A stretch of DNA of 62,978 nucleotides, counting the filler, from Jimgerdemannia flammicorona (Eukaryota), in the NCBI GenBank assembly GCA_003990765.1. It is 3 parts of 3 records of this genome, joined end to end, with 100 filler letters (N's around TTAATTAATTAA, not from the genome) between each part and the next. Parts side by side here need not be neighbours in the genome. Positions count along the whole stretch, not along the records: positions 21,031 to 41,958 come from RBNJ01001566.1; 2 more parts are not named here. One strand, written 5' to 3'. The notes below the pieces were generated by a model. It searched no databases. It saw only the letters and a list, made by a program, of their open reading frames with translations, and had not been told where the DNA came from. The position numbers were made by a program, and so were the translations under genes. This document shows, piece after piece, positions 17,256-52,429 of the stretch. Numbering within the stretch: position 1 is the first letter of the stretch; every line of letters starts with the position of its first letter.

Positions 17256-17707
17256 ACCCCTTAATTTGCTGAAAATATATTTTTCTAAAGAAACTCTATC
17301 AAAAAAATTTATTCTATATTAATTATACAAATAAGTAACCTATACCTCACCAAGACTTTAAGCATATATAAGCCTAGATTATCTCAGTATTGAGTATATA
17401 TCTCATGGGATAAATGAGGTTCTTTCTACTAGAGAACACTCTCTCAACTAGAGTACTAGTAGTAGAAATAATCAGATAGTCTCGCACTATACTACTTAGA
17501 TCGGAAATGTCTATCTATTATATCTATAACTATATATCCTTAAGATAAATAGTAGTTAAAGACTATTAATTAAATTTTACCAACTATCTGTAAAAAGACA
17601 ACTCATCTTCTACCAGTTGAGTATCTCTATTCTCTCTAGCAGGATCACCTAGTTACTGGTCAGATAAATAGTTAACTCATCTATTTATTAAAGTACTTCT
17701 ACTAATT

Positions 17708-19606: not shown

Positions 19607-20930
19607 TGTAATGGTGACCCCAGAATGATGACATCAGCACAGGAGACAGCCTTTCTTTACAAGCCACCAGATCAGAGTACAAGAAGATCATATGGCATGT
19701 GAGATGAGCAACGATGACCAACTGTGAGTCATTGTGACCACAGCACAAGCATCCTGAAGAATATAAAAGAAGGATCAAGGAACTGCAGTAGCAGCAACCA
19801 ACAAGAACCCCAATCCCAAAATAGCTCAAAGACTTACCACAAACAAAAATGCCTGCTGCCCGCCAAACCTCAAGGTCAAGGAATCATCAAGGTATCTCAG
19901 TCGAGGAAAGGATATTTCAAGACATCAGAAGAGCCATGAGGACCCGCTCAAGAAGGACTCCTAGCGTCAACCTGGATACTGCAGACCCTTATCACTTTAT
20001 CCTCTACTGCCATGAAATGGAAACAAGGATCACCATTGCCACCGAATACCTCCAAATGTGGCAAGAATACGAAATAGGAAACCTCCTCTGCCGGGAGTTC
20101 CCACAGGCCAGCCCTCAAGAGCTACAAGATGCCACCCCCATAGACCTACATGAGGCAAGGACAGCAAAGAAGATCTATCAGATCTTCAGGCATGCACCAT
20201 GGTTGATCCCCAACTTGGAGTATGTTAGAGTCTCAGACTTCAGAGACCTGTCATTCCGCTGTATCAATGCACTAGAAGCCAGGGTAGCCACAGAGGCCCA
20301 GTCCACCATCACCCTCAATAGTGAAGAAGTAGAAGACTTCTGGCACCCTATCCTTCAGGACAACCCAGACCAATTCCTGCAAGGATTGATCTCAGTATTC
20401 CAAGGCCCAAGCATCCGGGTTAGATCTCCCCAAGACCCCACATTTGTCCCCTATTTTGTAGAGGAGAACCTCATAGACTGGAGAGCTCCAGACCTTGTTC
20501 CTGATTTTCCCGCCACACCCGAGTGTGATGACGTCATCGATGACGTCATCCCGCACAACATCGAGGCACGCGAAAATGATGAAGTACATGAGACGTGCAA
20601 CCTATATGACGAATTCACGGATCTCATCTCCTTCAGTGATGATGATGATGAAGCTCCCATGATCCTGAACTTTCTGCTCTAAAGTTCTTTGTTACACTGG
20701 ATAATGCCAGCACCGGTATTCTCATGTAACACTAGATAATGCCAGTACCAGTATTCTGAGGTGACACGAAATTGTTCCAGCACTGGTATTTTGACATGGT
20801 ACTAAATAATGCCAGCTCTGGAACTCAGTAGTTTTAGTTATTGGAATTTATATTTAGCTTTATATCTTAGCAACCATTGAATTATATTTTGTATAAATAC
20901 CTCTCTTATTTCCTCTGAAATAAAGTCAGT
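19607..20930 (+). mobile_element. Family A LTR, least mutated copy, running into an assembly gap
   Basis: Starts TGTAAT after CTAT; TATAAATA at 20892, AATAAA at 20919; retains CpGs. Confidence 0.9.
19849..20682 (+). CDS. 277-aa protein of unknown function encoded inside the LTR (U3); basic N-terminus, acidic C-terminus
   Basis: Uninterrupted ATG-to-stop ORF in AAAAATG context; colinear in three other LTR copies; similar to ORF 35195-35707. Confidence 0.85.
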   Translation: MPAARQTSRSRNHQGISVEERIFQDIRRAMRTRSRRTPSVNLDTADPYHFILYCHEMETRITIATEYLQMWQEYEIGNLLCREFPQASPQELQDATPIDLHEARTAKKIYQIFRHAPWLIPNLEYVRVSDFRDLSFRCINALEARVATEAQSTITLNSEEVEDFWHPILQDNPDQFLQGLISVFQGPSIRVRSPQDPTFVPYFVEENLIDWRAPDLVPDFPATPECDDVIDDVIPHNIEARENDEVHETCNLYDEFTDLISFSDDDDEAPMILNFLL

Positions 20931-21030
20931 NNNNNNNNNNNNNNNNNNNNNNNNNNNNNNNNNNNNNNNNNNNNTTAATTAATTAANNNNNNNNNNNNNN
21001 NNNNNNNNNNNNNNNNNNNNNNNNNNNNNN
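20931..21030. other. Assembly gap with artificial TTAATTAATTAA linker
   Basis: N-run, 12-nt all-frame stop linker, N-run; identical to the second gap. Confidence 0.97.
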
Positions 21031-21164: not shown

Positions 21165-22494
21165 AGTCAAAGGGATAGACTATGCAAAGGATTATATGGT
21201 ATTAAGCAAGTAGTGCACCTATGGAATATATAAAAGAATTGATAAATATCTCCTTAACAATAGATTTAAGTATTGCAAAGTAGATAATTGCATATATATC
21301 TAGTATTATAATGATAGTATAGTATTCATCTCCTTTCTCTGCTACTTTACCAGCCATAATGATTTGGTAAGTAATCTTCTGAGTCTACTTTCCATAATTA
21401 TTACCCCCTCTACCTTAGATTGATTTGCTATACCTATTGCAGGGCAGTGAGAGGGAGGCAATGGTGATGAGTTGCCCCTTTATCAGTGTCAGATTAGTGT
21501 CTTCTCTACTTTTTTGTGGTTTCTGGTATCTTTGGATGCATCTGGAGTGCATCTGTTTTGGTATAGTATCTTCTTTCTTTTGCTATTACCAACAAGGTGC
21601 TGTCTTGGTATGTCTCAGGCTATGTAGGGAGTTGGCTGACCTTGGGCATTAAGTGCTCAGTATAGGTTACCTGCAGGTCCTCAGTGCTTGTAGTGGAGCT
21701 CTCTGGCTTTGGTGAGCTTCCTGGTGAGCATGGTTCTGATGTATATGACTGCTTTTTGGGTATTATCAGGATGGGAGAGAAGATGGCCATCACAGATAGA
21801 AGAAAGAGTGATAATAGTGAACTAGTAGAGTACTAGGCTGGGGGTGGTCATTAGGGCTGGGGCAGGTACTGCTTTGGTGGGGCCTTTTGATTGGTATAGA
21901 GTAGTTAGGTAGTAGGTATCACTCTCAGCTTCTTTTGGCAATTCAGCAAGTTGGGCCCTGGTCATTGGGGGGGGTCAGGGGGCCTGAGGCTACTCATTTC
22001 AGACATCTTAGCTGCACTCAACTGAAACTAGAAGCTGACATGGCAATGTGATCAAGGCTTATAGGCTTGAGTAGTGGAGTATTGGAAGTCTCCTCTCACC
22101 TCATATGTAAGTTCTTTACTTACCTCAACTGAGAGAACCAGACCCTATCCACCATGATGTACTTTGATGAGGGTTTTTCTTTGCCTGTCATTCTCTTTAG
22201 GGTGGCAGAAGCTATTCTATTCAGCTTGGGTGTAGCCTTGTATATATGTTGGGGTCTTGGGCATATGCTTTCAGTTGTTGGTATATGGCTGGGTCTCTCC
22301 TAGTAATAGAGAGAGCATAGTGTGCAGAATGAGGTGCAGGCCAATATAGGCTCTGCTGCATCTGGCATAGTCAAGCTGCTAGATAATAGCTAGCCTAGAT
22401 TAATGGGGAGGCAGTGCTTGATAGATGGTGGAGGAGGGTTTTGGCCTATATAGTCTAGATTCCCTTCCAATAAAAATCTACAGAACATTGAGTC

Positions 22495-22535
<41 letters not shown>

Positions 22536-26601: not shown

Positions 26602-28132
26602 TGTAACAGACCAAAATGTACCACCTGAATTATAACTTAACCAGACAACATGAACAATTAGCATACTTACTCAGCATGATGTGACTTCCAGTATATTATA
26701 GTTACTCATGCTCGCCACACTTATAATTAGCCAAGACACCAGATCAGGATTATTTACCTGTGTCCTGAGGACACACTCATGTCCGGCGGACACACTCATG
26801 TCCTGCAGACATACTCATGTCCTGTGGACACACCTGTACCCAGAGGACACACCCAAACATTACCAAAGATAGCAAATCTATAGTTAGCCACATAGTAACC
26901 AGATAGCAACCAACTTGTATAAATTACCCTAGAGGCGCAAGTGAATAAAACCTTAGTCTGAATTGAAGTGCAAACCAAAGAAGCCTCTAAAGATTGAGCA
27001 ATTGGTCCTCTTATTCCCACTCTGGTCCACTTTCCAATACAAAGAAGAGTTTGTTACGTTTTTGGTTCGCTTGCCAGATAAGCCTGAAGATTTGCCACCT
27101 AAGTTTAAGGAGAACTTTGCCGCCTTTTGAAGAACCCGCCACTTAAAGGAATAAGCTGTGCTATTGGTATGCTTACCAGATAAGCCTGAAGAACCCTATC
27201 CTCTGCCTTCCCAAGAAAGCCGCCTTGCTCAAGCTAGTTTCTGATGCAACTTCGCAGTGATCTGTTCACACAAACGAAGCCAGTCTTTGATGCAACTTTG
27301 CCAAGAGACCCTTTCCAAGAATGCCACCAGTAGTTCATATTCCCAGTTGAAGCCGCTGATTTAGAAGAATCTGCGCCACCCGAGTTATTTCCCAGAAGCC
27401 CGCCGATTCAGGAAGAATCCACGCCATCCCATTTCCCAGTTAGAACCCTGCCGATTCAGGAAGAATCTGCGCCATCTGAGTTAATTCCCAGTTAAGCCAC
27501 CATTTTCAAGAAGTCTGCTGATTCAGGAAGAATCTGCGTCATTCGCCGTTTTCAAGTTATCCACATTCCCAGAGAATCCATGCCACCTGAGTCGCTGTTC
27601 CCAGAGGAGCCCAACCCGTGACATCTGAGTTATTCGTCATTTCCAGTGAGCCCGGAAGAATCCACTGCCTGTACTATTTCCAATAACAAGAACCCACGCC
27701 ATATATTCCCAGAGAGCCAAATCAGGTTATCTGCCGAATTATCAGAACATCTGCATAAGGAACCCATCGCGCTACACAGAGATCGTCATGCAGAAATCAC
27801 ATAAGAAGAACTATTAAATTGCCAGACCATCACACACAAGGAGATCATCGCGCTACACAGAAATCACCTATCACTCAAGAAGGAAACTGCTCGCACTACA
27901 CACAAATTGTGCCATTCCCAGTTGACCCAAGAAGGAAAAGACATACAAATCGCTGCTACACCCAGAGAACTGTCCCAATAAGGAAACTGCTTGCACAGTA
28001 TCCAGATCTTGACTATTATACCACTAAACACCAAGAACATTTTGTTGCTTTTAACAAAGTAACTGGGGGCTCAAGCCAAACTACATCAACCCCCAACCTT
28101 GTAATTTGCCTCCATTGAGCTGGCATGATACA
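26602..28132 (+). repeat. Family B 5' LTR
   Basis: TGTAAC...GATACA; direct repeat of 35747-37286. Confidence 0.95.
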
Positions 28133-28134
28133 TT

Positions 28135-28151
28135 TGGGGGCTCAACTGGGA
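28135..28151 (+). promoter_or_regulatory. Primer-binding site, tRNA-Pro-like
   Basis: TGGGGGCTCAACTGGGA two bases after the LTR; resembles the tRNA-Pro PBS TGGGGGCTCGTCCGGGA. Confidence 0.75.
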
Positions 28152-28201
28152 AGATTTCAAAATTGACGTGACTTTTTAGCTCACAAGAACCCACAGTCAA
28201 A

Positions 28202-31200
28202 CTGGATACATTTGATACAACACCAACCTCTGCTACTACAGGAGAACCAGTCATCACTAGCATTTAGACAGGAAGAGAAGTAATCACCTCGAGACTTGTC
28301 AACTACCCAGCATCAGAAGAATCTCAACCAGAAGCAGGAGGCAGTATAGCCTGAAACCCTCAGCCAGATCAACCAGATCAACCAGATCAACCAGATCAAC
28401 CAGACAATACAGGTAGCCCTGCTGGAGATTTTGGAGAACTTGCATAAGAACTAGAAGACTTTATTACCCAGACCCAACACCTTACAGCCAGACACCCCAC
28501 ATCAGTCCCACTAATTTCACCAATAGAACCCCTACCACAATCTCTTGCAGAACTAGAAGTAGCTCCTACAAGGATACCTAGGCCTACTCTACCTCACCCA
28601 AGGACCAGAACACCATCTTTAAGATACCTAAGCACCCTGGTCTCTAGTGACAATTCAGAAAGTGAATCAGAATCAGAATCCGAATTCGAACCAGAATCAG
28701 AAGAAAGTGACAAAGAAATGGCCACCTCATTGCCAATCTTTGCAGGATACCTGGAGGAAGACCCCAGAGAATTCCTTGATGGAATCGAAGGAATTGCAGC
28801 CTTGAGGAATCTCTCAGATGAAAGGAAAATTGCCATCTACAAAGCTCAGCTCAGAGAACCAGCCAGAGGGATTTTCCATCAAACAGCAAACAACCCAGAT
28901 TCTGAACTAGCAAGACAGATACAAGCAGCAGTCTCCTATGAGCTAGAATATCAGGCCATGGTCTACTGGCTCATAGAAAAGTATGCAGGAAATGAAACCT
29001 GCCACAAGGCTCAGGAATCTATCATGGGAATGAAGATGAATCTTGGAGAATCACCCAGAGCCTTCTTTATAAGAATCCAGAAGAGAATGCATTCTGCTGG
29101 GTTCAATGCCACCAACCAAGACATCATATGTAGGTCCAATGACCTTCATGAATGGAATTCCCCTGAATATTGCCCAGCATGTCTACACCCTAGGCATCAG
29201 AAGGTCCGAAGAGCAAGTAGATGTAGCCCAAGGATTCTTTGATGTCAGGCAAGGAACTACCTGGAGTGACCATGACAAGAAGGAAGATAAAGAAGATATC
29301 TTGGTCAAAGCCCTGCAAGGACTCCTTCAAGGACAAGAAAGATCTGAAGAAAGAAGGCTAGCCAAGGAAGAAAAGAAGGACAGAAGCAAAATTCAAGACC
29401 TCAGCTCCAAGTTAGACTGATTGGTTGGACAGATTGAAAAACTCACCACACGCGAAAATCAGGACTACCAAAACAACAGAGGGTACCCACCACAGAGGAA
29501 CCAAGGTTATCCATCAAGAGATAACAGGAATTACCAGCAAGAAGAAAGAAGGTACTCTGTCCGAGACAGAGCCCAAGTCCAATACTTCCACTGTGGACAA
29601 CTTGGACACTATGCCACTGAATGTGACAACAAAAAAAGTGACCAAAGGGACTCAGAACCACCAAACCAAAGAAATGACACCCAGTACAAGAAGACTGAAG
29701 CCCATCCTGTTGAAGATTTCGAGGAAGCAAGCAACAGTGAAGACTACAGTGACCTAGACTTGTACCCTATGAAGGTTACCACCCAAAAGACAGTCTACCC
29801 AGCAGAGAAAAGAAAGAGACCTGTGGGAAGACCATCCAGGAACATCAGCAGAAGAATCATTCAAGAAGAAGATGAGGAACATGAGGAGGAACAAGTTGAA
29901 ACACCTCCCCAAACCCCCTCACCTTTTGTGCCTGAGACAAATAAGTTGCCACCAGAAGATGAAGAAATGGAACAAGAAGAACGGGAACCTGCTGCTCCAA
30001 AGCCTAAGAAGAAGTACACCCTGAAGACCATGCCTAGAGACATTTACAATAAAGCCTGGCAGAAGATCCAAGAAGCCAAGATGGAAGTTCCTCTCCTGCA
30101 GTTCTTGCAACTGACACCAGCTGGAGTCCGAAACAAATTGCTGAGAACCACCAGGTCTAGCACTGGCCGAGTTCCAATCCCACAGCAAGAACCAGCCTCC
30201 ATCCCTGTCCAAGCAGCCGAAAGACATGTCAGCACCTACTTACATGGAGACATTGGAGGACAAAAAGCAAAAATCCTCATAGATACAGGAGCAGCTGTTT
30301 GTGTCATTGTCAAATGATTCTTGGACACCCTCCAATGGCCCATTGATGGACCATCCAACCTCAGCATCATAGTAGCAGATGGAGCCCAAACTCAACCCCT
30401 TGGTGAAGTATGAAATATCACCATCTCCCTTAGACACATTCAGTTCTCCATCCCCAAAGCTGTTGTCACCAAAGCTGTCACCTATGACATGATTCTTGGT
30501 ACCAACTGGATGAAGGAAATGAATGCAGTTATTAATATTGGCCAACAAGTACTCAAGTTTGACTACCGAGGCAAGAAGTATAGAGTTAAGGTGACCAGCT
30601 ATGAGCAATCAAAGAAGAAAAAGAAGGTCACTATTCAAGAAGAATATGCCAGTAGTGAGGAGTCTACTACAGAAGAGGAAGAAGAATCCGAAGATGGAAA
30701 TGATCCCAGACTCAATCCACGAATTAACCTGGTGGATGACAGACCAGAAGACAATGTGTGGGCCAAGAACACTATCCCTATCACTATTGGAGCTATCGCA
30801 GGAGAGACCAAAGGATGCCCTACATGCCTCAAGAGACACAAGTATCCCAAGCACTCCTCCAAGATCATAGGAAAAAGGAAATCACCTGATGCAGCCTGCC
30901 CAGAATGCAGAAGAAAGAAGAAGAAATGCAGACATGTTCCAGAAATACCTGCGACCAAAGCTGCAGAAGTACAAGTAATTTGGGGTCAAGAATCATCTGA
31001 GGAAGAAGAAACTTCTGATCAAGAAGTTCCTGAACAAGAAGCACCTGATGAAGAAGAAGTCCCTGAACTCATCCCCTGGGATAACCCTCACTGGACACCA
31101 CCTGAAGACAATGACCCCTGGAATACAGAGGAAGGACCCAGTACTATCACTATTATCCCCAAGAAAGAAACCCACCAAGAGAAAGCTTTTCAGCTAGGAA

Positions 31201-32723
31201 GATGTCCACATCAAATGGTCTTCCACTCTCCCCGAGACTACTGCTATCAGTGTCATCTGTTGGATCAACAAGAAAGACAGAGACCCCAGAGACCAGAACC
31301 CCCAACTACTCTTACACAGTCCACCACCTTTCAAGAAGTCACCACAAGGCTACAAAGTCAATTTAGGGGACAAGGCTTCTTCACCTGAACAGAAATCTAC
31401 CCCTTGTCTACCCTTCCCCCAACCTATGATCAAGATGGGTACCAATTCCCAAGACAACAAGAGATAAATAGCCAGGAACATCATTTCCGAGCAATGGGAT
31501 ATTGCAACTATGAGAGACACCCTGATTGCCGAGACTGCAGACATCAGAAGATTCACCTCAGTCATGATGTTGTAGTGTACACCTTGAAGAAAGGAGATAA
31601 CCAAAGCCAGATCCAAAAGAGTCAGATTCGAAAAAGCCAGACCAAGAAGCCTGGAAAAAGAATTCTCAAGATCTACAATTTGAGAGAAGACATCCTAGCT
31701 CTTATCAGACATGCAACCCACCAAGGATGGGCAGAAGATGCAACCAACTTTATAGAAGCCCTTGACCCTACAGGAAGGAGGGGAATCAATTACCTCTGAG
31801 ACCCCTCTACTGGAGCCAGGTGGCCACACCTCAACCTTAGAGCTTGGAGACTCTCTGCTAGTGGAGCTTCAGCCTTAGGAAAGCCAGAACTCAGCAAGGA
31901 TATTGCCCAGTATGCCCTGCTGCACCCCAAGGCCAAACCTCTGAGCAAAGCCCATCCAGAGGATATAGGATATGATCTTCACAGCCTGGAGGACAAATCT
32001 ATCAAGCCTGGGAAAACCTTCATGGTCAGAACTGGATTGGCCATGCAGCCACCCCAAGGAGCTTATATTCAACTGACCTCAAGGTCTGGACTTGCCAGAC
32101 AAGGGATAACTGTAGAAGGAGGAACCATTGACCCTAGATATACAGGCGAAATCAAGGTTATCCTACACAACAGCAGTGCAGAATGGCACTGAATCATTAG
32201 AGGACAGAAGATTGCCCAAGCAGTCTTCATGAAGGTCAAGACCCCACAGTTACAGGAAGTCTCTGAACTAACTGAAGGAACAAGACAAGCTGAAGGATTT
32301 GGAAGTTTAGACAGAAAAGAGGTACATCTCCTTCAAGTCAACTGCCTCAAGAGGAATGTTCCCCAGCAAGTATACTGGCAACCAGTCAGACTGCACAAGA
32401 ATCTCATCCTGGAGCCTAGAGAACAAACCACTTTCGAAATCTTTGCACCACCCGACCCCAGGAACCTTTTCTTTGAACCCAAGGAAGATATCCTACACCT
32501 GGATATAGAGGGACACACATTCCCTGACAAAATGAACCCAGTATACTCCCGAGCAACCAACCAAAGTTGAGAGACCATCATCCTGCCGAAAGGAACCATC
32601 ATAGGACATCTGGTACCTTTTCTCAACCGAACACATAGAGAAGTTTATGAACTAAACCTATCGGGAAACGGCAAAAGGTCCCAGAAGAAAGGAAAGGCCC
32701 CTCTGCAACCCAGGAGACAGTGA
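28202..32723 (+). pseudogene. Gag (CCHC knuckle)-aspartic protease-Cys/His-rich region-dUTPase polyprotein
   Basis: YFHCGQLGHYATEC (first Cys decayed), ILIDTGAAVCV, MILGTNW; one frameshift near 29130; internal stops mostly TGA/TAG; true start uncertain. Confidence 0.88.
31910..32310 (+). pseudogene. dUTPase domain
   Basis: GYDL, TSRSGLA, GGTIDPRYTGEIKV, GQKIAQ, RQAEGFGS = five trimeric dUTPase motifs; one TGA. Confidence 0.93.
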
Positions 32724-34135
32724 AGCCTTCCACCAACATTGGAGAAGAATTGACACCTCAACAACAGCAATAACTAGTAGAACTTCTCAACAAATATCAA
32801 GATATCTTCACCACTGATTATGGCAACCTGCCATACAACCTATCATATCACCACAGCATAAATACAGGAAATGCAACACCCATCCAGCAGAAACCCTATA
32901 GAATACCCCATCACTTGAAAACATTCGAAAAGGAGCACATCCAAGAACTCTTAGACAATGGAGCCATCCGACCCTCTACCAGCCCCTGGGCCAGCCCTAT
33001 ACTTATTGTACCAAAGAAAGGAGGATGGAGACTCTGCGTGGATTACAGAAAACTCAACTCAGTCACTGAAAAGGATGCTTATTCTTTGCCCAGAATCGAT
33101 GATCTTTTGGACCAGTTACAAGATGCCAGATACTTCAGCAGTATGGACCTCTTCACAGGATTTCATGAGATCCTCATGGACCCCAAGGACATTCAAAAGA
33201 CAGCCTTCCTTGCTCTAGGAAAACTGTTTGAATACCTCTGAATGCCCTTTGGACTTTGCAATGCACCCCCCACCTTCCAGAGGATGATAAACTCAGTCTA
33301 TGCCCCCTTGATCCACCACTGTCTGATTGTATACATGGATGACTCCAACATCTATTCAGCAAATTTCGAAGAACACCTGCGCCACCTAGAGGAATTCTTC
33401 AAGCTCACCCGCAAGAATCACTTAAGACTAAATGCAAAGAAATGCTACTTTGGAAAACAGAAACTCGAATTTCTTGGATTCGTGGTCTCAAAAGAAGGAA
33501 CTCATACAGATCCAAAGAAAACCGAGAAGATCAACAATTGGCCAGTACCCAAGACTCCAAAAGAAATACTATCATTCCTGATGCTAGTATCCTACTACAG
33601 AAGATTCATCAAGGATTTTGCCCAAATTGCTGCCCTAATCCGAATCCTTCTCAAGAAAGGAATGACATTCAAGTGGACAGAATTACAGGAAAAAGCCTTC
33701 AGAGAACTCAAGAACCACATGACTACAGCACCAATCCTTGTGCGCCCCAATCTATAGAAGCCATTCATCTTGTATACAGATGCTTCCAAAGATGGCCTCG
33801 GAGCAGTTCTAGCCCAAGAAGGACCTGACCAACAGCACCATATAATAGCTTATGCAAGCAGGGCTACCAATCAGCAGCAGATGAACTATGGCAGCACCAA
33901 ACTGGAATGCCTTGCAGTCATATGGGTGGTCACCCTGTTCAAGCATTACCTCATCAGAAAAAGATTCACTCTGATCACAGACCATGCAGCCCTCAAATGG
34001 CTATTCAACTGCAAGGAACCTGCTGGAATTCTAGCCTGCTGAATCCTTATCCTCCAGGATTACAAAATCACCATCATTCACAAAGCAGGGAAAGCCCACA
34101 ACAATGTTGATGTACTTTCCTGCCAGCCCCAATGA
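32666..34135 (+). pseudogene. Reverse transcriptase-RNase H (-1 frame)
   Basis: WASPILIVPKKGGWRLCVDYRKLN, MPFGLCNAP, YMDD, YTDAS, TDHAAL. Confidence 0.95.
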
Positions 34136-35211
34136 ATCAGAGGAAGGGTGTCCCAAGGAACCACACCCTAAAAGAAGCTCCTCAGACTATCAAAGCACAA
34201 GAAGATCTTATCTGAAAAGAACATCAGAAAGCCCACCAAGGACAGACAAGCATAGAAGATAGGATTCGAAAACAATATCAACATTGGCCCCACCTCAGAA
34301 CTCAAGTTCGAGACATCATCCAGAAATATGACATCTGCCAGAAGTACCAAGGAAAGAAGAACTATCAAGCCCCTCTGCAACCGATTCCCCCACCCACTCA
34401 CATCTTTCAAAGATGGGGAGTAGATGTAATTGGACCTCTACCAGTTACACCAAGAAGAAACAAATACATCCTTGTATTTGTAGAATATCTGACCAAGTGG
34501 CCCGAGGCTTTCCCAATGGAAATCGCAGATGTCTTAACCATTGTAGGCCTCCTCCATGGACTCACACTCAGATATGGACCTGCAGAAGAACTTATCTCTG
34601 ACTGAGGCACAGAATTTGTCAACAACATAATCACAAGTTATGCCCAAATTCAAAAGATCCACCTCAAAAGGACCACATCATACCACCCCCAGACCAATGG
34701 CATGATAGAAAGAATGAACCAGACCATCAAGAAAGAACTTGCCCAAGTCAACCTTATTAATTGGGACCTCTGCTTACCTGAGATCCTATGGGAAATTCGG
34801 AACACCCCTGCCACATCTACCAAACAAAAGCCATTCGAAATGATGTTTGCCAAGAAAACCAGAACTGCTGACCATGAGAATCTCGAAGACCTCCTCAAGA
34901 AGACAGAACAGTTACGAAATCAAGTCCAAGGACAGATTATCAAAGCCCAGGAAAGACAAAAGAAGTATTATAACCAAAAACAGAAGGATCAGGAGATCAG
35001 GATTGGAGATTAAGTCCTAGTTTGGAGAAGCATGATCGAGACAAACTTTGCCACCAAACTGAAACCAAAATAGGAAGGACCTTATCTTGTACACAACATC
35101 AGAGAAACCAGCATCTATTTAAGAAGCATAGATGGATGAACCCTGAGAACACCAGTACACATCAATCGCCTCAAGATATACTTCCCCTCACACTATGAAC
35201 TAGAGAATTGA
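34132..35211 (+). pseudogene. Integrase (separate reading frame)
   Basis: HQKAHQG..YDICQK zinc motif, WGVDVIGPLP, SD*GTEF, YHPQTNGMIER, GPY; no chromodomain visible. Confidence 0.92.
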
Positions 35212-35707
35212 CAACCACCTCCAAACTCTTGTTCTCAGTTCCCTCCAAGCCCTACCAGTTCCCTTGCCTCAGTTCTGGGAACCCAATGGAATGTATCTTC
35301 AGAAAATCCAAGTTCATCAAGAGAACCTCACTTTGGCTGAGAGGCTACTCTAGGTTCACCAGCTGTAGGCATATTATACAATTGGAGAACAATTGCAGAA
35401 TCTTCCTCTCCCAGACCTAGCCTATGTCCGAAACACCACTGGCCTGAATAGAAGGAACACTACTGCTGCAGACAGACTATATACAATATACAAACGAAAT
35501 CCTTCTGCCTTAATCCAGGCCCAGTTTTCCCTGAATGACCTCCAAAGGATGACACAGCCCACCTACCTCAGCATTATTCACCAAGTGGAGATCCTATTTC
35601 CCAAAGAAGAAGAAGAGCCCCTAGAATGGAGTGACCATAGCTCAGATGATGATGATGGAACAGGTATAGATGCAGAAGCTGCTTATGTCTATTGGGATGA
35701 TGACTGA
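35195..35707 (+). pseudogene. Extra 3' ORF (about 170 codons), homologue of the family A LTR protein
   Basis: ATG at 35195 in frame with ORF 35393..35707; three TAG stops explainable as CAG>TAG; acidic tail. Confidence 0.75.
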
Positions 35708-35746
35708 AGAATAGTCTGGGGCAGACTACCCTTCAGTGGGGGCTGA

Positions 35747-37286
35747 TATAATAGACCAAAACGTACCACCTGAATTATAACTTAGCCAGACGACGCGAAC
35801 AATTAGCATACTTACTCAGCATAATGTGGCTTCCAGTGTATCATAGTTACTCATGCTCGCCACACTTATAATTAGCCAAGACACCAGATCAGGATTGTTT
35901 ACCTGTGTCCTGAGGACACACTCATGTCTGGCAGACACACTCATGTCCTGCGGACACACTCATGTCCTGCAGACACACTCATGTCCTGTAGACACACCTG
36001 TACCCAGAGGACACACCCAAACATTACCAAAGATAGCAAATCTATAGTTAGCCACATAGTAACCAGATAGCAACCAACTTGTATAAATTACCCCAGAGGC
36101 ACGAGTGAATAAAACCTCAGTCCGAATTGAAGTGCAAACCAAAGAAGTCTCTAAAGATTGAGTAATTGGTCCCCTTATTCCCACTCTGGTCCACTTTCTG
36201 ATACAAAGAAGAGTTTGTTACATTTTTGGTTTGCTTGCCAAATAAGCCTGAAGATTTGCCACCTAAGTTCAAGGAGAACTTCGCCGCCTTTTGAAGAACC
36301 TGCCACTTAAAGGAATAAGCCGCGCTATTGGTACACTTGCCAGATAAGCCTGAAGAACCCTATCCTCCACCTTCCCAAGAAAGCCGCCTTGCTCAAGCCA
36401 GTTTCTGACACAACTTTGCAGTAATCTGTTTGTGCAAACAAAGCCAGTCTTTGATGCAACTTTGCCAAGAGACCCTTTCCAAGAATGCCGCCAGTAGTTT
36501 GTATTCCCAGTTGAAGCTGCCGATTTAGAAGAATATGCGCCACCTGAGTTATTTCCCAGAAGCCTGCCAATTCAGGAAGAATCTACGCCATCCCATTTCC
36601 CAGTTAGAATCTCACTGATTCAGGAAGAATCTATGCCATCCGAGTTAATTCCCAGTTAAGCCGCCATTTTCAAGAAGTCTGCTGATTCAGGAAGAATCTG
36701 CGTCATTCGCCATTTTCAAGTTATCTGCATTCCCAGAGAATCTGCACCACCCAAGTCGCTGTTCCCAGAGGAGCCCAACCCACAACATCCGAGTTATTTG
36801 TCATTCCCATTGAATCCACTGCCTGTACTATTTCCAGTAACAAGAACCCACACCATATATTCCCAGGGAGCCAAATCGGGTTATCCGCCGAATTATCAGA
36901 ACATCCACATAAGGAACCTGTCGCGCTACACAGAGATCGTCATGCAGAAATCACATAAGGAGAACCGTTAAATTGCCAGACTGTTATACACAAGGAGATC
37001 ATCATGCTATACAGAAATCACCTATCACTCAAGAAGGAAACTGCTCATGCTATATACAAATTGTACCATTCCCAGTTGACCCAAGAAGGAAAAGACATAC
37101 AAATCGCCACTACACCCAGAGAACTGTCTCAATAAGGAAACCGCTCACATAGTATCCAGATCTTGACTATTATACCACTAAACACCAAGAACATTTTGTT
37201 GCTTTTAACAAAGTAACTGGGGGCTCAAGCCAAACTACATCAACCCCCAACCTTGTAATTTGTCTCCATTGAGCTGGCATGTTACA
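35747..37286 (+). repeat. Family B 3' LTR
   Basis: Decayed start TATAATAGACC after AGTGGGGGCTGA; ends TGTTACA. Confidence 0.95.
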
Positions 37287-41805: not shown

Positions 41806-44800
41806 TCTTTTCTTTTTAAGTCACTTGGACTTCCCTTTATTACGCACATTCTATAGATAATACATAAATGCCCTCATCCATTTCAACCAATGCCCCTCGG
41901 ATCCCCCTCCCCACCCACTCCCCCATCCCACCGAAGGACAATCCCCCCGCCCACTACCNNNNNNNNNNNNNNNNNNNNNNNNNNNNNNNNNNNNNNNNNN
42001 NNTTAATTAATTAANNNNNNNNNNNNNNNNNNNNNNNNNNNNNNNNNNNNNNNNNNNNCCCCCTATATTATTACAAATAAAGGCCACCTTCTCACTCACT
42101 ACCCCCACCCTCCCCCTACTCTGCCTTACAGATCTTCTCTACTAAGCAGTGCCTTTGACTGCCCTGCAGCCCCCAACCAAGCCACCAGTCTATCAAGGTA
42201 TCTTCCATAAGGCCATACCAATGCAACAACCAGTCTCCCAAGCCAAGTCTCCTCCTATCTTCAAAAACAAATAGCCAGTGGCTGGCCAACCCTACCCAAA
42301 TTGCCAAAACCCAGCCTAAGGTAAGCCACTCCTTTCTCACCCCCCCCTCACTAGTCTATTCCTCAGATCTTCTCACTAACCCTGTATGCTATCACTCTGA
42401 CACACTACTCCCAAGCAGTCCCCAGCAGTCCTCCAGAAGTTGCTAAGTACCCCATACTCTCCTAGCCAATGTTCAGACATCTATATATATCCCTCTTCCT
42501 GCTCTATATTGTGGCACTCCTTATAGTCAAAACAACTCCCCTCGATAAGGTGACCCAAGTAGAAGTTGAGCATCACATTCCTCCTCAGCATGTATTATTA
42601 GACCACCCAGTACTTTGGCAGCATCCACCTCCTCACCTCAGTACTCCAAGTCCACAAGCTATGCCAGTTCCACTCTTCTCTGATACTGACTCTCTGTTAT
42701 CTGCTAGGCCACAGATTCTGGCCTTATCCCCTTTGGCAGTCTATCCCATCACTAATGTCGAACTTGACTAAGGGAATGCCTCCCAATAATACTTGGTCCC
42801 ATCTCCACATCCCTGGGTCCCAAGCCACCTCTCCTTCATTACTCTGCTAACAAATTCCAATATAGTGTACCCCTTCTGCTACTCCCTACCAAAAGTCTTT
42901 ATATCTCAATTGTGCAGTCTTCTGAAGCCCCACTAATAATAAGAGATTATCTGTCAAGCCTCTTGGTGAGAATCTCCTCTCCCAGATCTTCTGTAATAGG
43001 GGAACCCAACTGTCTCCTTTCAATTTCACTGCTCTCTTCAACCACTATGCCCTCAAGCAGTGTAGTCACTTCAGAAAGTCAACCAGCCTAAGCCCTCCTC
43101 TTGTCACTGGTAAGAATAAGACCTCCCAACTGATCTGATCCCTTCTACTAGCCCAGATCCACTCCTTGGCTATCTTCAACAATTGCTTCACTACCCAGGC
43201 TGGGAAGTCCAGATGATATGCCAGATACCACAACTTTGGCAGCCAATAGATATTCAAAATCAAGATGCACCCTACTAAAGATAAATGGTGACCCCCCCAG
43301 CTCTACAGGATCTCCCCCCAGATTCCAACCCTCTGCTCTCATCAAAGTCTAGGTAGTACTGACCCATATACTGATAAATAAATACCCAAGTACTGCACTA
43401 TCTCACCAGTAGGGATGATTGTTCCAATGATATCCCCACCTACCAGGCCATTGCCCAACACTATTGTTTCATACTTATACTAATTGAGTTTAGCTCCAGA
43501 GTTCTTCTCATACTACTCCACCATCTTCTTGAGCTCTTCAACATCTGCAACAGATCTCAGGCTGACCACCATATTGTCTGCAAAGGCCCCAACTTTCCAC
43601 CCAATTCCAAAGACAGAGAGCTCCATTACCTTCTATCTAATTCTGTCCATTAGGGGCTCCAGAGAAAGAGTATATAGAATGGAGGACAGTGGGTCCCCCT
43701 GGGGCACTCTCCTACCTAGGGGAAATAATACTCTTCTATGTCCATTACAAATGAGCACCACTCTACTTCTTTCCAGTAGGCTGATCATTGCTGACTGGAA
43801 CTGTTATAGTACCCCAGTCCTATCTAATACTTTTGCCAGCCAGACTTACTGCACTCAGTCATAAGCCTTCTCTTAGTCCAAGAAGACCAATCACCCATCT
43901 AGTCCACCAGCTTGTGCCCCTTCAATAACTCTATGTACCCAAGCTGTACTATTCCTAATGAGCTGATCTCCTATGTATAAAGCCCCTCTGCTCAATACCC
44001 AGGACTTGCTGGGCCACCTTCTGTAGCCTTGCAACCACCACCTTAGTTACTAACTTTCTGTCTACATCCAGCAACACAATCAGCCACCAGTTCTTCCAGT
44101 CCTCTTACCTTCCTTTGTTCTTGTAAAGCAGTATCACCAGCCCCAGATTCTGTTCCCCCACCCATCTCCCTATCTGCAATATAAAATCACACAATGCTGT
44201 TATCTTACCTAGAACTTCTGAGACTCCTACCATCTTCTTCCAGAAGTCTCAGAGCAGACCATCCTTCCCAGACACCATGTCCAAAGTTGTTGTGATAAGA
44301 ACCTGGTGGATCTCTTTCTCCTATACTGGCAACACCAAGTCACCCAACCCATTTGCTTGAGAAGGGTACCAATCCTCCAATATCTGGTCAATGGCTACAG
44401 TATCTGCTCCCCCCTCCTCCTCACTCTACAATCCACTCCATCACTCCTTTAGTGAACCAAGAATATCTTATATACCATGCACCAGAATATCATCAGAGTC
44501 AACCACCCCCTCCTATCTTTGCTGTACTCTTCTCACCTGAAGAGCCCTTGTGAGATACTTAGAGGGCCTCTCCTCTTCCTCCAATCCTTGCCAATGAAGC
44601 TATGCTGCTAAGCTCTGCACCCTTGCCTTCTCCTTATCTCTTAGTACCTGTTGTAATTCCCCAACCTCCATTTTTGCTCTTATCAATCTCCAATCCTCTC
44701 TCCCCTCTACTACTATTACTAGCTCTGTCCAATCCTCCAAGAGTCTGATTAGTCTAACAGAAGCCCATCTCACCTATCACCTCCTCTGCTTCCCAGCCTC

Positions 44801-47800
44801 TCTACCAGTCTCACTCCAGTAAATCCTGGCCATCTCTTTCATCCTCATCTACCTAACATCAACTGGGGTACCTTTCTGCCTCCAGCTCCCCACCCTCAGT
44901 TGAATGTCTTCCACCCATGCATTCCACTAGATCCTATCCTCTAATAATGAGGAATTGAGGTATTAATGTCCAGGCCCATCCCCACTTCCCCCAAATGTCC
45001 TTGCCCTAACAGCCCCCAATGATCTGACCAAGGACACCATTCTACTTTCAGTGACTTCCAAACATCTAATCCCCAGTAACTGGCCATCAGCATTCAGTCA
45101 ATCCTCATTCCCAGATCCCTTGCCCAGTGTATATATATCCTCCTATTCCCCCAATACTCTCTACCAGCATCTACCAGAGTACTTAGTCTTTCCATATCCT
45201 CCCAAGCCACCAACCCTCTACTCCTATTCTCAGCACCCCTTCCACCATCTGTTCTATCCACCAGTACATCCCAGACCATATTGAAATCTCCACCAAGTAT
45301 ATCCACCCCAGCCCCTATAAGGACTCCACTCTCCTGGAGACCCTTCACTCAATCCACATGCTCACTCCATACAGCAGGGCAGTAATATGAGCCCACTGTG
45401 ACCAGCTCTCAATCTATACATATCCACTCTCTCCAGACCAATCTATCTCCCCAGCTCCTCATCTCCTATATCTCCCCTTGACCCTTTTGGACCAGAATCT
45501 CAACCTTGCCCTTCTAAACTGCCTCACCTCCCCATTCCTTTGTCCACTCCAGCCTATCCAAATTATCCTTATATCTGATATCCTACAATAGAAAGAGATC
45601 AGCCTCTAATCCCTTCAGCTAAGTAAAAATGTTCCTACATTGAGAAGTGTCCCATAACCCATTCACATTCAAAAAGAAAATGTTAGTTGTACTATTTATA
45701 ATGAAATATGGTGTGTTATCCAGTCTATCCCTACTGCTCCATGTTCATCTCTTCCTGTGCTATATCTAGATTATATTCTGCAGTTATCTCTTCCTCTTCA
45801 GCCCTCTGAGCCTCCAGTCCAGTCAATAGCTCATTTATCTCCCCATCTGCCTTCTTCTCAAACTCCTCACAGTACTCCAGGCAGGCCTCCTGCCAGAGCT
45901 GCAATCCATGATACTTGTCCCAATAGTATTTAGCCCTCTCACCAGCAACCCCTGCCAGCTCAGCCTCCCTCTTCTTATCCACCTTATATCCTTCCTTCTC
46001 TAGATATACTGTAAGAATTTCTGTTTTCAATGTCAGCTCCATGTCATCCTCTTGCAGGATCTGTGCCCAATGTTCATTACTCATTACTCTCAAGTCCACC
46101 TCCCCCAACTCTTCAGCTACTAGGTTATTCATCATCCTGTATATCCAAAGCAGGTTCTCCACCTCCTTCTCCCCAGGAGTCACTGGTCTCCCTCCATCCA
46201 ACATCGTGGTGTCAGCTCTGGTACTCACAGACTCATCTCATACCTCTGGGATATTCACTAGTTCCTCCTCTCCAACTACCACTATGTATCCCCCATTTGC
46301 TACCTCAGGAACTCTAAACTGCACTCACTGGGCTCCCCTCATTGGTACATTCTCTACCACCCTACTTCAGGAAGTTGGACCTCACCTAATAAGAGGAGTA
46401 GGGGTGAGCAATCCCTCCCAGTTCTCCTCCAAGACCTTAAATATACCATCAGCATACAGATTATTGCCAGTCACTTTCTTGTCCTCTCCTGCCACCTTCT
46501 CTGCACTCCCACCATCCTTGCTGACCCAGACACTCACTTTGGCACCCTCCACCTCCACTATTCCACCTGTATCCTTCTGAGGTCTATCTTCCAGCTTAGC
46601 TAGTAGCTCCTTCTGATGCTTATACCCCTGAGCTCTTTCCCACTGCCTCTTGTCTATTCTAATCCACTTCTCATCCATCACCTCCAAGTGTGTCAATTCT
46701 ACAAAAGTCTTCCAAGCCTTGGTCTGCTGCTTTACCACACCACTCAGCTCTTCTAATGCTTTCAACAAATCCTCTTCCTCCTCCTCACTCCCCTTCACCC
46801 TCATTACCTTGTACAAGATTGTCCCCCAGACCATCACTGATAGCTAGTCCCTTGTCTTCCCAGTAGCCTCCTTCTCTGCTAGCCAAATCTGTACATCAAC
46901 ATCCCTAGTCCTAAGTGAGGTCCCTTCCTAGACCCTGAAGCTGATGTCCACTACCTTACCATACTCTGTCATGACCTCCTCAACTCTCCTTCTTGTCTCC
47001 ACTACTGTCATCATGGGCACTCCTTTCACCAGCAGTTGTACCACTCTGGGATCTTATCTCAGGCAGTGTACCATAGGGATATACATCTCTCCAACAGTCA
47101 AACCAACCTTCAGTACCTCTTCCAAAGGCTCAGCCTCTTCAAAGCCCACCTCCACTTCCTCCAATCTCTTCAGAAACTTTGCCAATACTGCTCTAGCCAT
47201 CTGCTTGGCAATAAGCCCTAGCACCATTTTTGCCATCACCACTAGGCCTCAGAAGCATAGTATAACTACAAATACTAAGATCAATTTTTTGAGTAATAGA
47301 GCCACTGCCAGGCCTATCACACCATCTGCCAAGTCCCCCTGCCCTCTAAGCCCCTGCTGCTCAGCTGCACCATCAGCAGTCATATCTGGATTTTTTTCCA
47401 GATTGGCAGTCTCATCACTATCAGCTGTCATACTCACTCCAGCCACTACTCCCCCAGCTTTACTGCCCTCACCACTAAGGACTACTCTCCTACAAACTGC
47501 TGTCTTCTTCATCTCCTTGCCTTTCCTCAGCCATCCCTTCAATCCTGATGTCTGCTGTCTTCTCTTCACTGTCTCCATGAAGCTTATTCTCCCAGATTCC
47601 TGTCCTCCACTACTGTCTCCTCCCCCTCCTCATCCTCCTGCCAGCAGCCCCCTCATACCCCCCCTCAGACCAGGACCTCTCTCTACCTGCTGCCAGTTGA
47701 ATATGCTAGAGCTGCCCTGTCCAGTATATGCCCCAGATTACTTGCTGTTTGCTATTGCCTTAGTATCTTTCTCTAATAAATGACTTGAAAGTGTATTGTA

Positions 47801-47845
47801 AAAGTGTATATAATGTGAATTGTAGCTGAGAAAGATGTGGTAATA
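41806..47845 (-). mobile_element. Near full-length L1/Tx1-like LINE (ORF1 about 45731-47790, ORF2 about 42080-45700), degenerate
   Basis: APE motifs LNVNGL, DLFLL*D, GGDFN, RID; RT motifs PQGDPLS, AFADN, YLGIY, ILNIYWLPKLWY, LPVTRGGL; four ORF1 pieces share one frame. Confidence 0.92.
41959..42058. other. Assembly gap with artificial TTAATTAATTAA linker
   Basis: Same structure as 20931-21030. Confidence 0.97.
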
Positions 47846-47849
47846 CTCT

Positions 47850-50800
47850 ATATACTATAGCTTAGACAGCTAGTATATATTCAGCACTATTACTCTCTCT
47901 GCTAGAGAGATATATCAGCCTCCTCACCTCAAGAGAACCTCTCCTCATATAAGTAATTACTGCTCCCATTAACTATAAGATAGTAGAGAACTATATACCA
48001 AAAAATAAATATCTAGATAACAGACTACTTTTCTAACTAAGACCACTATTTTGATCACATTGCTGCCAACTATTCCTCCATCTAGGATCAGAGTCTCATA
48101 CTTATCTCAATTAAGTCTAGCTCCCAAATACTCCTCATACCACTCTACTATATTCCTCAATACTACTATATCCTCTACAGAGCCCAGCCTAATTACCATA
48201 TTATCAGCAAAGGCCCCAACCTTCCAGTTCACTCTCAAAATGTTCAAACCCCCAACTTTGTATTATATTCTGTCTAACAGAGACTCTAGTGAAAGGGTAT
48301 AGATTGTGGCACTCTTCTGCCTAGAGAGAAGAACTCTCCTCTATGCTCATTCACTATAATGACTGCCTGACTCTCCTCTAATAGATAGACTAATGATCTT
48401 CTAACCCCTAGAGAAACTCTTATCTACTTCAATATCCCCTCCAGCCATATATGTATACTAAACTCTATTACAAGTCTTCTCTTGGTCTAGAAAAACTAAT
48501 CAACTATCAACCCTGGCCACATGAGCACTCTCAATAATATCATGAATCTATACTGTCCTATTATAGATCAAACAATCTCTAAAAAGCCCCTCTGTTTAGT
48601 CTCCAATATCTGCTGAGTCACTCCTTGCAGCCTGGTCATCAAAATCTTTATCACTAACTTACAATCTATATTCAGAAATATAATCAGTCTCTAATTCTTC
48701 CAATTCTCTCTTCTTTTCTTATTCTTATATATATAACAGAGCTATAAGTCCCAGGCACTGTCTCCCAATCCAGGTCTCTGAGCCAATGATCTTATTATAT
48801 ATCTATACTATCTCTTCCAGTACAATCTCAACTTTAGCCATCTTCTTTCAAAAATCCCAAAGCAATCCATCCTCTCCAGGAGCTGTTCTTATACTTATTA
48901 TTACCAAAACCTGATATATCTTCTCTTCTTATACAGAGGCTCTAAGTTCACCTAGGTCTATAGTCAGGTCTGAGTACCAATCTTCTAACTGCCTCTCAAT
49001 ATCAATAACATCTTCACCACTCTCTTCTTTACTCTACAGTTGCCCTCAGTGAGCCTACAGTAGATCCAAAATCTCTAACATTCCAGTTACTATTTCCCCT
49101 ATCTTGTCCAATACACTCTCTTACTGCTGCCTCATTCTCCTAGCCTATAGTAGCTACAATAAGAACTTTGTAAACTACTCTCTCTCCTCCAAACTCTACT
49201 ATTATAGCCTTGCTATCAACTCCTTCACCTGTAGTTCCTCCTCCTACCTAAGCAGTCTCTTCAGTTCTTCTACCTTTTACTAAATTCTTTGAATCCTTCC
49301 TTACAGTCAGTTAAAGATCCAGCCCACTTCTCCAGTAATCATTTCAATCTTCTTAAAGCTCATCTAATATAACTCCTCTACTGAGCATTAGATTTCAACT
49401 ACTGCTAATGATCTCTGATCTCCAACCTCTATGTCCTCTAGTCAATAATTCTAGTGCTAACATCTACTACCTATTCTTTCCATAAAGTATTATCTCCTAG
49501 CAGTGAGGTATTCAGATACCAATATCCAGATTTCTCTCTCTTATCTCCAAATCTCTCTCTGCCCAACAATCTCCAGTGGTCAGACTAAGGACACCAGACT
49601 ATCTCAATATTGCTCCAGACATCTGCACCCCATTACTTAGCTATCAATACCCAGTTAATTCTTGATTCTAACCCTATCACCCAGTAAGTATAGATCTGAT
49701 AATCTCCCCACTTTAGTTGCCCTGTATCTACCAAAGAGCTCAGTCTCTCTAATTTTACATTCTATCACTCTTGCCCACTATCTCCCTCCTTCTATTAGTT
49801 CTATCCATTTTTCCATTATATATTATATTAAAGTTACTCCTCAAATAGTCAATTTCTGTAGCTATCAGAATATCTACCTCTTGCAGCCCCCTTATCTAAT
49901 CTATATATTCCCTCCTTTCTACTAAGCAGTAGTATGATCCAACAGTCAGAGGGCTCTAGCCTAGCCTCCTCCACACTCTCTACACCAATTTACCTCCCCA
50001 ATGTCTAATGTCTCTAATATCCCCTACTCTCTTTCTAATCAGAATGCTCACTAACTCTACCATACTACTATACCTCCCCATTCTCTCATCCAATCCAGCA
50101 AGTCCAAGTCTATATCATATTCCACATCCTACAGTAAGAAAAGATCTACTTCTAGCCTTTTCAATTAATTAAAGATATTCTGATATCTTATTATACCTCT
50201 CAGACTATTGACATTCAGAGAGAAGATTCTTATTGTACTGTTTATATTAAATAATGTTTTAAGAAAAAGTGCCCACTCTATAATTCTATACTCATTCCTT
50301 CACCCACAATATCTAGGTTTCTCTCTATCTCACACTTGTCTGCCTCTCCCTACTGAGTATCTAGTATCATTAAGATCTCCTAACAATCTGTACCATCCAC
50401 AGCTTCTATCTCTATCCAGTACTCCTTATATACTATCTACCACTTTGTCAGTCCTTTTCTTGGACCCTACATATATAGCCCAATTATTCACAATTATCAG
50501 AAGTACTACCTCTCTATCATCATCTACTTGATATGTCTCAGCTTCCAATAAGACTACTATTATCTCATCTCTCAGTATCTCTTACTCAGTACCCAAAAGT
50601 CCTCTCTCTCCAGCTCCTTAGCCACTATATTCTCAAGTATTTTTTACAGTCATTTCTTCTCATCCACTATCTCCTCAACTCTCTGGACCACCCTCTTCTC
50701 CCCCTCCACCTGTCTCCCCTCTACATTTTTTTCTGCTGATTCATTCTAGTCCTCCTCTAGTATATCCTATAGTTTATCCTCACTAGCAGCCCCATCTGGC

Positions 50801-52220
50801 ATACTATACTGAGGGTACTCCCTCTCAACTATCTCTGTATTTTCTATAATACTACTCAATCTAGTGCCACCTCTCTCTTCCTGGGTTACTACTGGAGCTG
50901 TTTCCTTCTCTCTAGCCTAAGTACTTACATATCTTCAGCAGTGGTCCCCCCTGCTCCTCTCCCTCTCAACTTTACCAACAGGTTCTTCTAAATATACCTC
51001 TTCTTTACTCTCTCCCAGGTTATCTGATCTAGCCTCACTCTCTTATTATTTATAATCTCCACTACTGTCTTAGTCTTAAACTCCTTTCAGGCCAGTCTTC
51101 TCCTTTTAACAACCTCAGCCAGATCCTTCAATATCTTGAGTAAGTCTTCTTCTTCTTCTTATATCTCTTTTACTCTAGAGACTTTATACTCTACTGGTCT
51201 CTATTTGAGTACTACTGATCAGTTCCATGCTCTCTCCATATTCTCCTTATCTACTAGTTATACTCTGATGTCCACATCTTCTATTCTGAACTCTATGTCC
51301 TCTCAGATCCAAAACCCAATATCTATAATATCTCTATACTTCTTAATAGCCTCTACAATCAGCTCTCTAACTACCTTCTTTAACATTATAAGAATATTCA
51401 TCACTGTTAACTATACTACTTAGAGGTTCCAATGTAGATACCTGACCATAGGGATCACTACTCCCCCCACTATCACCTACTTCTCTATCATCTCTAACAG
51501 TATATCCTCCTTTTTGAATTCAACCTTCACCCCTTCCAGCTCCTTCAAAAACTTCACTGAGGTAGCCTCTTTTACCTCCTGGATCAGAAGCCTTAGAATT
51601 ATCCTTATCATTACTACTAAGTCTCAGAAATACAGTATGATAGTGAATTCTAACCTTGACTTCTTGAGTAATAGTACTACCACCAGGCTCATTACACCAT
51701 CTACCAGATCTCCAGGCCTCATGCCCACTCTCTGTCCAGATCTATCATCTACTATTATATCTGGATTTTTTTTCCAAATTAGCAATCTCCTTGCTATCAG
51801 CAGTTCTACTCTCTTTAGCCACTACCCTCCAGCCTTACTACTCTCACTGCTCTGAGCTGCTCCCCCAGACCCAGCATTTCTTACTGTCTCCTTACCCTTC
51901 CTCAGTCAGCCCTCTAGTCTAGTTATCAGATACCTCCTCTTTACCTTATTGATAAAGCTTATTCTTCTAGTTCTCTGTCTCCTAATACTACTCTCTCTCC
52001 TTCTATATCCTCCTGCCAGTAAGTCTCACATACTTCCCCCCAAGCCATAACTTCTCTCCATATACTACTAGTTAAATACACTAGAGCTGCTCTGTCTAGC
52101 ATATATCTTAGAATACTTGATGGTTACTATATTGTTAATATCTTTTCTCCAAAAATGATATCTTGAGTATTGCTAGAAGTTTATGTAACCTGAATAATTA
52201 CTAGAGAAAGGATGTGATTT
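47850..52220 (-). mobile_element. Second, more decayed LINE of a related family, 3'-truncated
   Basis: Colinear with about 43230-47845 (AFADNMV, LNV*GI, similar ORF1 and 5' end). Confidence 0.88.
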
Positions 52221-52426: not shown

Positions 52427-52429
52427 ATT

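Follow-up and report, generated by a model that had tools for sequence, protein, structure and literature searches.

The DNA analysed here, called the window throughout, is a stretch of 62,978 nucleotides from the Jimgerdemannia flammicorona genome. It contains a Gypsy element (element B; 26602-37286, plus strand) with LTRs of 1.53 kb and a 4-bp CTAT target duplication flanking both ends. The 5′ LTR (26602-28132) has TG...CA ends, is 90.6% identical to the 3′ LTR (35747-37286) and is abutted by a TGG-containing, PBS-like site (28133-28152). A broken gag-pol follows on the same strand (28448-35211, pol stop at 35209-35211), in which Pfam recognized a zinc knuckle, a dUTPase, RT, RNase H and integrase, while a protease-like region was assigned by motif and not by Pfam. 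The start of an accessory ORF (35195-35707, plus strand; 170 codons from the ATG at 35195 to the TGA at 35705-35707) overlaps the pol stop, and its end lies 39 nt from the 3′ LTR. A polypurine tract (PPT; 35736-35746) is found 3′ of this ORF, and the 3′ LTR carries 19-bp tandem dyad repeats (35906-35997) located 5′ of a TATA box at 36080. The encoded protein is predicted to comprise a helical core, at approximately residues 34-134, followed by an acidic tail.

The window copy of the accessory ORF is interrupted by three in-frame TAG codons (35201, 35351 and 35366). An earlier reading made from the sequence alone had read through them and proposed a genuine protein, and the peptide that it quoted is present in the window. 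A genome search with the B protein, which returned 1506 first-look candidates of which 150 were scored, confirmed that the ORF is real, as it is stop-free across 137 matched residues in 14 of the 30 best genomic matches. Separately, about 1.07 kb of the B LTR (27060-28132 and 36220-37286) lies 3′ of the part homologous to the 470-bp LTR of another family, family C; it is highly variable between copies and contains 48-bp repeats. A relic short LTR end suspected within the 1.5-kb LTR was dropped, the motif occurring in just 2 of 34 loci.

A second LTR family, family A, carries an ORF within the LTR itself. Its LTR at 19607-20930 (plus strand) runs into an assembly gap, has its TATA box at 20890 and contains in U3 an accessory ORF (19849-20682; 277 aa) that is open in the window copy and encodes the core plus a C-terminal extension; the A peptide quoted by the sequence-only reading is present in this ORF. 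A second TATA-like box (19762-19769), a putative promoter, lies 87 nt 5′ of the ORF, and the ORF is followed by about 470-490 nt of LTR of ordinary size. Three further copies are present in the window: two solo LTRs, each with a broken ORF copy (9999-11507, minus strand, target duplication TTAT; 14289-15842, plus strand, target duplication CTAT), and a 3′ fragment (588-3510, plus strand) with the integrase region, the PPT and a truncated 3′ LTR that starts at 2545 and includes the ORF. Among 6191 first-look candidates in the genome, one locus (L064) is a full family A element with two LTRs; in a sample of 30 loci, a shared PPT lies 5′ of the LTR in 13 and a shared PBS-like sequence 3′ of it in 2. 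With the PPT 5′, the PBS-like sequence 3′, solo copies bordered by 4-bp duplications and a full element, the A protein does lie inside the U3 of a true Gypsy LTR, as first read. A possible second intact ORF between the A integrase and the PPT was rejected, the ATG-led frame stopping at one early codon in all 25 copies listed. The same interval gave no match to the accessory-family profile, and its DNA shows faint similarity to the post-integrase DNA of family C (z 4.8).

Other repeats are also present in the window. By eye, 42059-52500 on the minus strand contains two degraded non-LTR (LINE-like) elements, nested or in tandem, whose frames resemble endonuclease and RT. Frames resembling gag, dUTPase and protease mark 59000-62978, likewise by eye, as part of a further LTR element, and the start of this fragment is similar to 42075-42310. 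A family of approximately 500-bp elements with long terminal inverted repeats (MITE-like) is found at 17707-18205, 52211-52433, 53018-53599 and 54215-54497, and a tandem array of about 12 units of 83 bp at 16250-17253. Three copies of a 1.2-kb repeat, about 80% identical (3869-5045, 21331-22528 and 57682-58892), gave no accessory-family profile match. Positions 20931-21030 and 41959-42058 are artificial spacer in assembly gaps and are not biological.

The accessory gene in four Gypsy families

Two more families of this genome carry an ORF at a comparable place. Family C, a third Gypsy family first seen by eye in a flank (1716 candidates in the genome), has an ORF of roughly 155 aa between the integrase and the PPT. 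Two metagenome loci encode an A-type protein: in L131 it ends directly at the PPT and LTR start, and in L132 there is no PPT between it and the LTR TATA box, as in family A. A genome search with L131 yielded family D (150 scored matches, 59-66% identity), whose genes are ordered dUTPase, RT, integrase with a chromodomain-like end, a spacer of about 1.1 kb, and an A-type ORF whose stop is fused with the PPT. The chromodomain-like end was read by eye and makes D a putative chromovirus; no chromodomain is visible by eye in A, B or C. Paired LTR repeats were found in several C and D loci, and the pol order RT-RNase H-integrase was established by Pfam for B and by tblastn for A, C and D. By their paired LTRs, pol order, PBS and PPT, all four families are Ty3/Gypsy LTR retrotransposons.

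Several features of the C and D loci stand apart from the accessory ORF itself. D loci (L137:500-1490 and others) have about 0.7 kb with further short frames between the integrase end and the ORF; similar DNA follows an integrase end in L069, and the stretch is possibly another accessory gene. Family C splits into subfamilies (L163-L172 and L109-L118) with a common LTR core and differing accessory proteins and U3 repeat motifs, and L168 looks recombinant within the ORF. A genome search with the third-party protein P0029 as query gave family C in all 10 loci inspected, and no fifth family.

The position of the gene relative to the PPT separates A from the other families. A PPT junction was located 3′ of the accessory domain in 29/30 B, 29/40 C and 13/15 D loci, whereas in family A it was 5′ of the domain in 13/30 loci and 3′ in none; the loci outside these counts had no junction matched by the patterns used. 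The gene is under purifying selection in all four families, with dN/dS of about 0.11 in B, 0.14 in C, 0.20 in D and 0.17-0.35 in comparisons involving A. In this genome, the accessory gene is thus the third gene of no fewer than four Gypsy families that also encode a dUTPase, lying after the integrase and before the PPT in B, C and D and inside U3 in A. This bears out the proposal of a conserved accessory gene after integrase, which is selected and pre-PPT in B, C and D. These three families have a sense accessory ORF between pol and the 3′ LTR; A differs in that its ORF is in U3.

Homology of the proteins and origin of the family A copy

The sequence-only reading had aligned the A and B proteins by eye. 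Pairwise comparison alone did not sustain that alignment: its score of 42 was equalled by 171 of 5000 shuffles, and by 58 of 5000 without the tails (P 0.01-0.03), a marginal result, and unrelated frames of the window scored 42-53 in the same test. A weak score matched by unrelated frames made the by-eye alignment insufficient by itself. HHalign with close homologues gave E 0.0032 for A-B, and profile alignments of A-B, A-C and B-C fell in one register, with E of 0.0015, 0.0063 and 5.5e-5 and none of 150 column shuffles as high in each case; the HHalign evidence for A-B is modest, with E values of 0.0032, 0.0015 and 0.0007 and probabilities of 10-27%.

We then turned to proteins from other sources. 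A joint A+B+C profile run against 1.84 billion proteins gave 34 matches: 10 near A/D, B or C, 22 third-party proteins and 2 false positives that were set aside (P0037 and P0045, proteins of repeat and insect-type HTH kinds). A profile of the 22 third-party proteins, run on 1254 pieces of the window, recovered B (E 5e-16) and each of the four A copies (E 1e-13 to 2e-8), the best unrelated piece standing at E 0.084; the scores were 55.3 bits for B and 46.3 bits for A, and 2000 shuffles of each reached at most 9.3. The by-eye register was recovered in this way. Because the third-party set had been retrieved with A, B and C in the query, this test is partly circular, which, together with a pairwise score no better than that of unrelated frames, leaves some room for A and B being unrelated helical proteins that share a chance motif. 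However, an A/D-only profile and a B-only profile each recovered 22 of the 22 third-party proteins (P <= 7e-5), and this agreement makes chance likeness unlikely. The third-party proteins moreover align among themselves on one motif, and family C, found by position, fits the same register. We therefore regard chance resemblance as very improbable and the A and B proteins, compared by sequence, as very likely homologous members of one family, as had been claimed. The accompanying claim that the A and B LTRs have no obvious DNA similarity holds for direct comparison (z below 1), but each of the two LTRs has a TATA/poly(A)-signal block in common with either family C or locus L132.

We further investigated how the gene came to lie in U3 in family A. 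In RT and IN trees, A groups with C (65% and 69% identity, 100/100 support), while A and D share 38% identity in RT and 27% in IN. In the tree of the accessory domain, A groups instead with D (support 97/95); all trees are midpoint-rooted and were judged by their support values. The A and D proteins are identical at 99/267 residues (37%) and have a C-terminal extension in common, and A and C at 14/60. The TATA/poly(A) block of A is D-like (z 11.4, versus z 2.6 against C), the A leader resembles that of L131 (z 6.5), and the A PPT is nearly identical to the C PPT. A TATA-like box precedes the ORF ATG by 65-80 nt in D, L131 and L132, comparable in place to that of A; one C copy has such a box 65-87 nt before the ORF, within integrase codons, and B has no TATA within 200 nt 5′ of the ATG. 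In family B, the ORF diverges faster than pol (71% versus 86-89% identity), and between the window copy and L067 dS is 1.67 for the ORF, 0.39 for RT and 0.24 for IN. The gene and nearby LTR DNA thus appear to have been exchanged between elements as a 3′ module.

A C-type pol, a D-type protein and a C-like PPT in the same element argue for capture of a cassette by recombination. A probably gained its D-type promoter-plus-ORF cassette in U3 in this way: a C-like backbone would have taken the TATA-plus-ORF segment into U3, the simplest route being a template switch while the element was reverse-transcribed. Its place in U3 means that both LTRs now carry the gene, as do solo LTRs. The sequence-only reading had instead suggested that the gene was drawn into U3 by a shift of the PPT, in which case A would have moved its PPT upstream over its own inherited gene and C would have replaced its copy. 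Such a shift can call on D and L131, where the same type of gene ends directly at the PPT, and on the 470-490 nt of post-ORF LTR in A, which align with the C LTR under loose gap costs (z 7.2); at stricter gap costs, however, the A-C match in U5 reaches only z 2.8. A simple shift also fits poorly with a pol sister to C, a D-type protein and a C-like PPT, and with an A-D protein identity (37%) that equals or exceeds that of RT (38%) and IN (27%), though the ORF of B outpaces pol. We consider it unlikely and favour the recombination of a D-type cassette into a C-like element. In L131, the DNA 5′ of the ORF TATA box (L131:150-205) resembles the downstream LTR (L131:1470-1525; z 4.6), a hint that the internal promoter may derive from an LTR duplicate.

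Predicted structure and possible function

The model of the B protein (pLDDT 89.2, pTM 0.74) has seven helices and a disordered acidic tail. Each of the seven has a counterpart in the A model (pLDDT 74.6), shifted by about 13-17 residues, and A has the extension in addition. The alignments behind the two models overlap almost completely, and the likeness of the models is therefore no independent proof of homology. No membrane segment was found in any of four proteins examined, the highest 19-residue hydropathy being 0.35-0.91 (0.91 in B and 0.49 in A). The absence of a membrane anchor had been correctly read from the sequence, and it means that the protein is not an env: the gene occupies the env position, but in position only.

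Searches for a known relative gave little. Pfam had no match for A or B and none consistent across members, the DUF3102 and DUF1016_N profiles matched 0 of 35 members at E up to 5, PHROGs gave no consistent match across members, and the best PDB match by sequence had E 0.06. Foldseek returned no match at E <= 0.001 against PDB or BFVD, the best TM in the Atlas structure search was 0.37, and with VIA-align no chain out of 48,161 reached Z >= 5 against either model, with nothing more on a second look, a null that does not mean a new fold. No relative was present among 395 pattern matches in viral contigs, and the RNA runs listed no RNA holder. The protein is thus predicted to be all-helical and soluble, and it matches no known family.

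The only fold lead that recurs is a ParB-type helix-turn-helix, and it is a weak one, with scores in the noise range and below the bars of the tools. For the A model, the SopB DNA-binding domain ranked 1 (residues 68-151, Z 3.9, rmsd 3.8, 78 aligned); for the B model it ranked 17 (residues 55-138, Z 3.0, rmsd 4.6, 81 aligned), behind unrelated helical chains, and the two alignments are in matching register. VirB was listed for both models and P1 ParB for the A model. DUF3102 appeared in the Foldseek list at E 1.3 and TM 0.32, and the Atlas lists included DUF3102 (0.88), DUF1016_N (0.87) and HTH_3 (within 0.87-0.89), all behind unrelated matches.

Conservation is concentrated in the helical core and not in the tail. 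The conserved positions are, in B numbering, Y60, Y61, G64, L84, A92, R94, Y96, F/Y99, K/R100, P103, A105 and D115; position 94 is K or R in 34/35 rows and position 100 in 28/35. In the model, the near-invariant basic residue sits in the second helix of a helix-turn-helix-like pair. The core of the A protein is net acidic (-6). Both proteins end in acidic tails, as had been noted (net -15 over 35 aa in B and -18 over 66 aa in A), and of 20 third-party proteins examined, 19 carry a net negative charge over their last 25 residues. Several third-party proteins have a short or weakly acidic tail.

Acidic stretches with aromatic residues occur in activation domains. The best explanation that we can offer is that the helix-turn-helix-like core (helices 72-82 and 86-99) would bind DNA of the element, probably in U3, and that the acidic, aromatic tail would recruit host factors, leading to more transcription or less silencing, in the manner of foamy-virus Tas or VANDAL VANC. 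Expression may come from the internal promoter in A and D and from coupling to pol or splicing in B. We lean slightly towards DNA or nucleic-acid binding; that the protein regulates transcription or silencing of its own element is held more tentatively. For the whole explanation, comprising homology, module history and a self-regulator, we estimate a probability of roughly 45%. Dyad counts in U3 provide candidate target sites: the B 5′ LTR has 7 against 1.3 expected (1/300 shuffles) and one C subfamily has 5 (7/300), while 10 of 12 regions show no clear excess over shuffles, with none in A or D. Internal tiles used as a control reach up to 5, and one C region in this test was probably cut from the wrong place. 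Judged by sequence, the 19-bp tandem dyad repeats in the U3 of B and similar repeats in C are thus candidates for the sites bound. It is doubtful, yet conceivable, that a clade-crossing family of LTR retrotransposons encodes a sequence-specific transcription or anti-silencing factor of its own, which joins a bacterial/phage ParB-like HTH to an acidic activation tail and passes from lineage to lineage along with the LTR sites that it targets, one lineage having it in U3 under its own promoter so that the many solo LTRs could supply it in trans.

Two other kinds of function have to be weighed. The protein might act after transcription, binding element RNA or small-RNA duplexes as a silencing suppressor, packaging or translation factor, or serving as a particle-associated chaperone. 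A helix bearing basic residues could contact RNA just as well as DNA, the N-terminal domain of yeast Dcr1 appears among the fold matches of both models (Z 3.2 and 3.7), and a language-model comparison places a translation-repressor family (0.91) and a filamentous-virus coat protein (0.92) among the neighbours. These neighbours, however, share few features (134-139/256), conflict with each other and are leads only, and among the matches of the A model, helix-turn-helix domains that bind DNA come up more frequently; we find an RNA role improbable. Little probability likewise attaches to a protein that would antagonize a host defence factor, or act as its decoy, through protein-protein contact, with the acidic tail as its working part, or to a negative regulator of copy number instead of an activator. 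Acidic tails are widespread in the family, and transitions make up 113 of 117 LTR differences, with CpG and CpA contexts leading, a heavy load which indicates an active host defence. The available part of PMC12193657 also reports that a retroviral 3′ ORF, for years presumed to be a transactivator, is not one. Against these roles, the conserved columns lie in the helical core and not in the tail, and binding of the element's own DNA by that core is the reading that we carry forward.

Known systems and what the gene may mean

Genes in U3 have precedents: MMTV sag and lentiviral nef are located in or over U3 and, as in family A, are copied into both LTRs. Their proteins are unrelated to those described here, and in our case the same family is also found outside the LTR in sister elements. 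VANDALs, the source of another parallel drawn below, are DNA transposons. Compared with ParB, SopB and VirB, the accessory protein has Z scores below 4, no HMM match and no ParB N-terminal domain.

LTR retrotransposons often have extra ORFs after pol, most of which lack an explanation, as stated in the accessible part of PMC7264820, and dUTPase and unnamed extra ORFs are known in fungal Gypsy elements (portions of PMC2864245). The aORF-3S "env-like" ORFs, as portrayed in that same part of PMC7264820, resemble the accessory gene in place, orientation, presence in most copies and conservation between families; our protein differs in having no membrane segment, in belonging to a new family and in lying wholly within U3 in one lineage. 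The foamy virus bel1/Tas gene, in the sections available of PMC8003144, is likewise an accessory gene near the 3′ LTR; it is expressed from an internal promoter, with which the putative promoter at the TATA-like box in A, D, L131 and L132 may be compared. An activator role like that of Tas is proposed here, and the present gene differs in belonging to a Gypsy element with no env. VANC of VANDAL transposons, going by excerpts of PMC5735166, is also element-encoded and goes with family-specific tandem repeats, to which the possible targets in B and one C subfamily may be compared; no homology to VANC was found, and repeats are not enriched in A or D. Bdelloid rotifer ORF3 types, in the extracts at hand of PMC5408684, are similarly modular third genes that move between dUTPase-bearing LTR lineages, but they encode esterases, exonucleases and membrane proteins, as opposed to a small helical protein with no Pfam match. 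The class of extra sense ORFs before the 3′ LTR is therefore known. The protein family and its relocation into U3 appear to be new: we found no description of either in the open-access literature searched, and the accessible part of the bioRxiv atlas 10.1101/2024.04.02.587720 held nothing relevant.

Altogether, the accessory gene is now defined as a family that occurs in four natural contexts and for which conserved residues and a confident model are available, so that its function can be tested directly. The pair formed by families A and D shows a route by which a whole gene and its promoter may enter an LTR. Should the protein prove to regulate its own element, the transactivators of complex retroviruses would have a parallel in simple retrotransposons, and the protein could be produced even by solo LTRs, which are usually regarded as dead.
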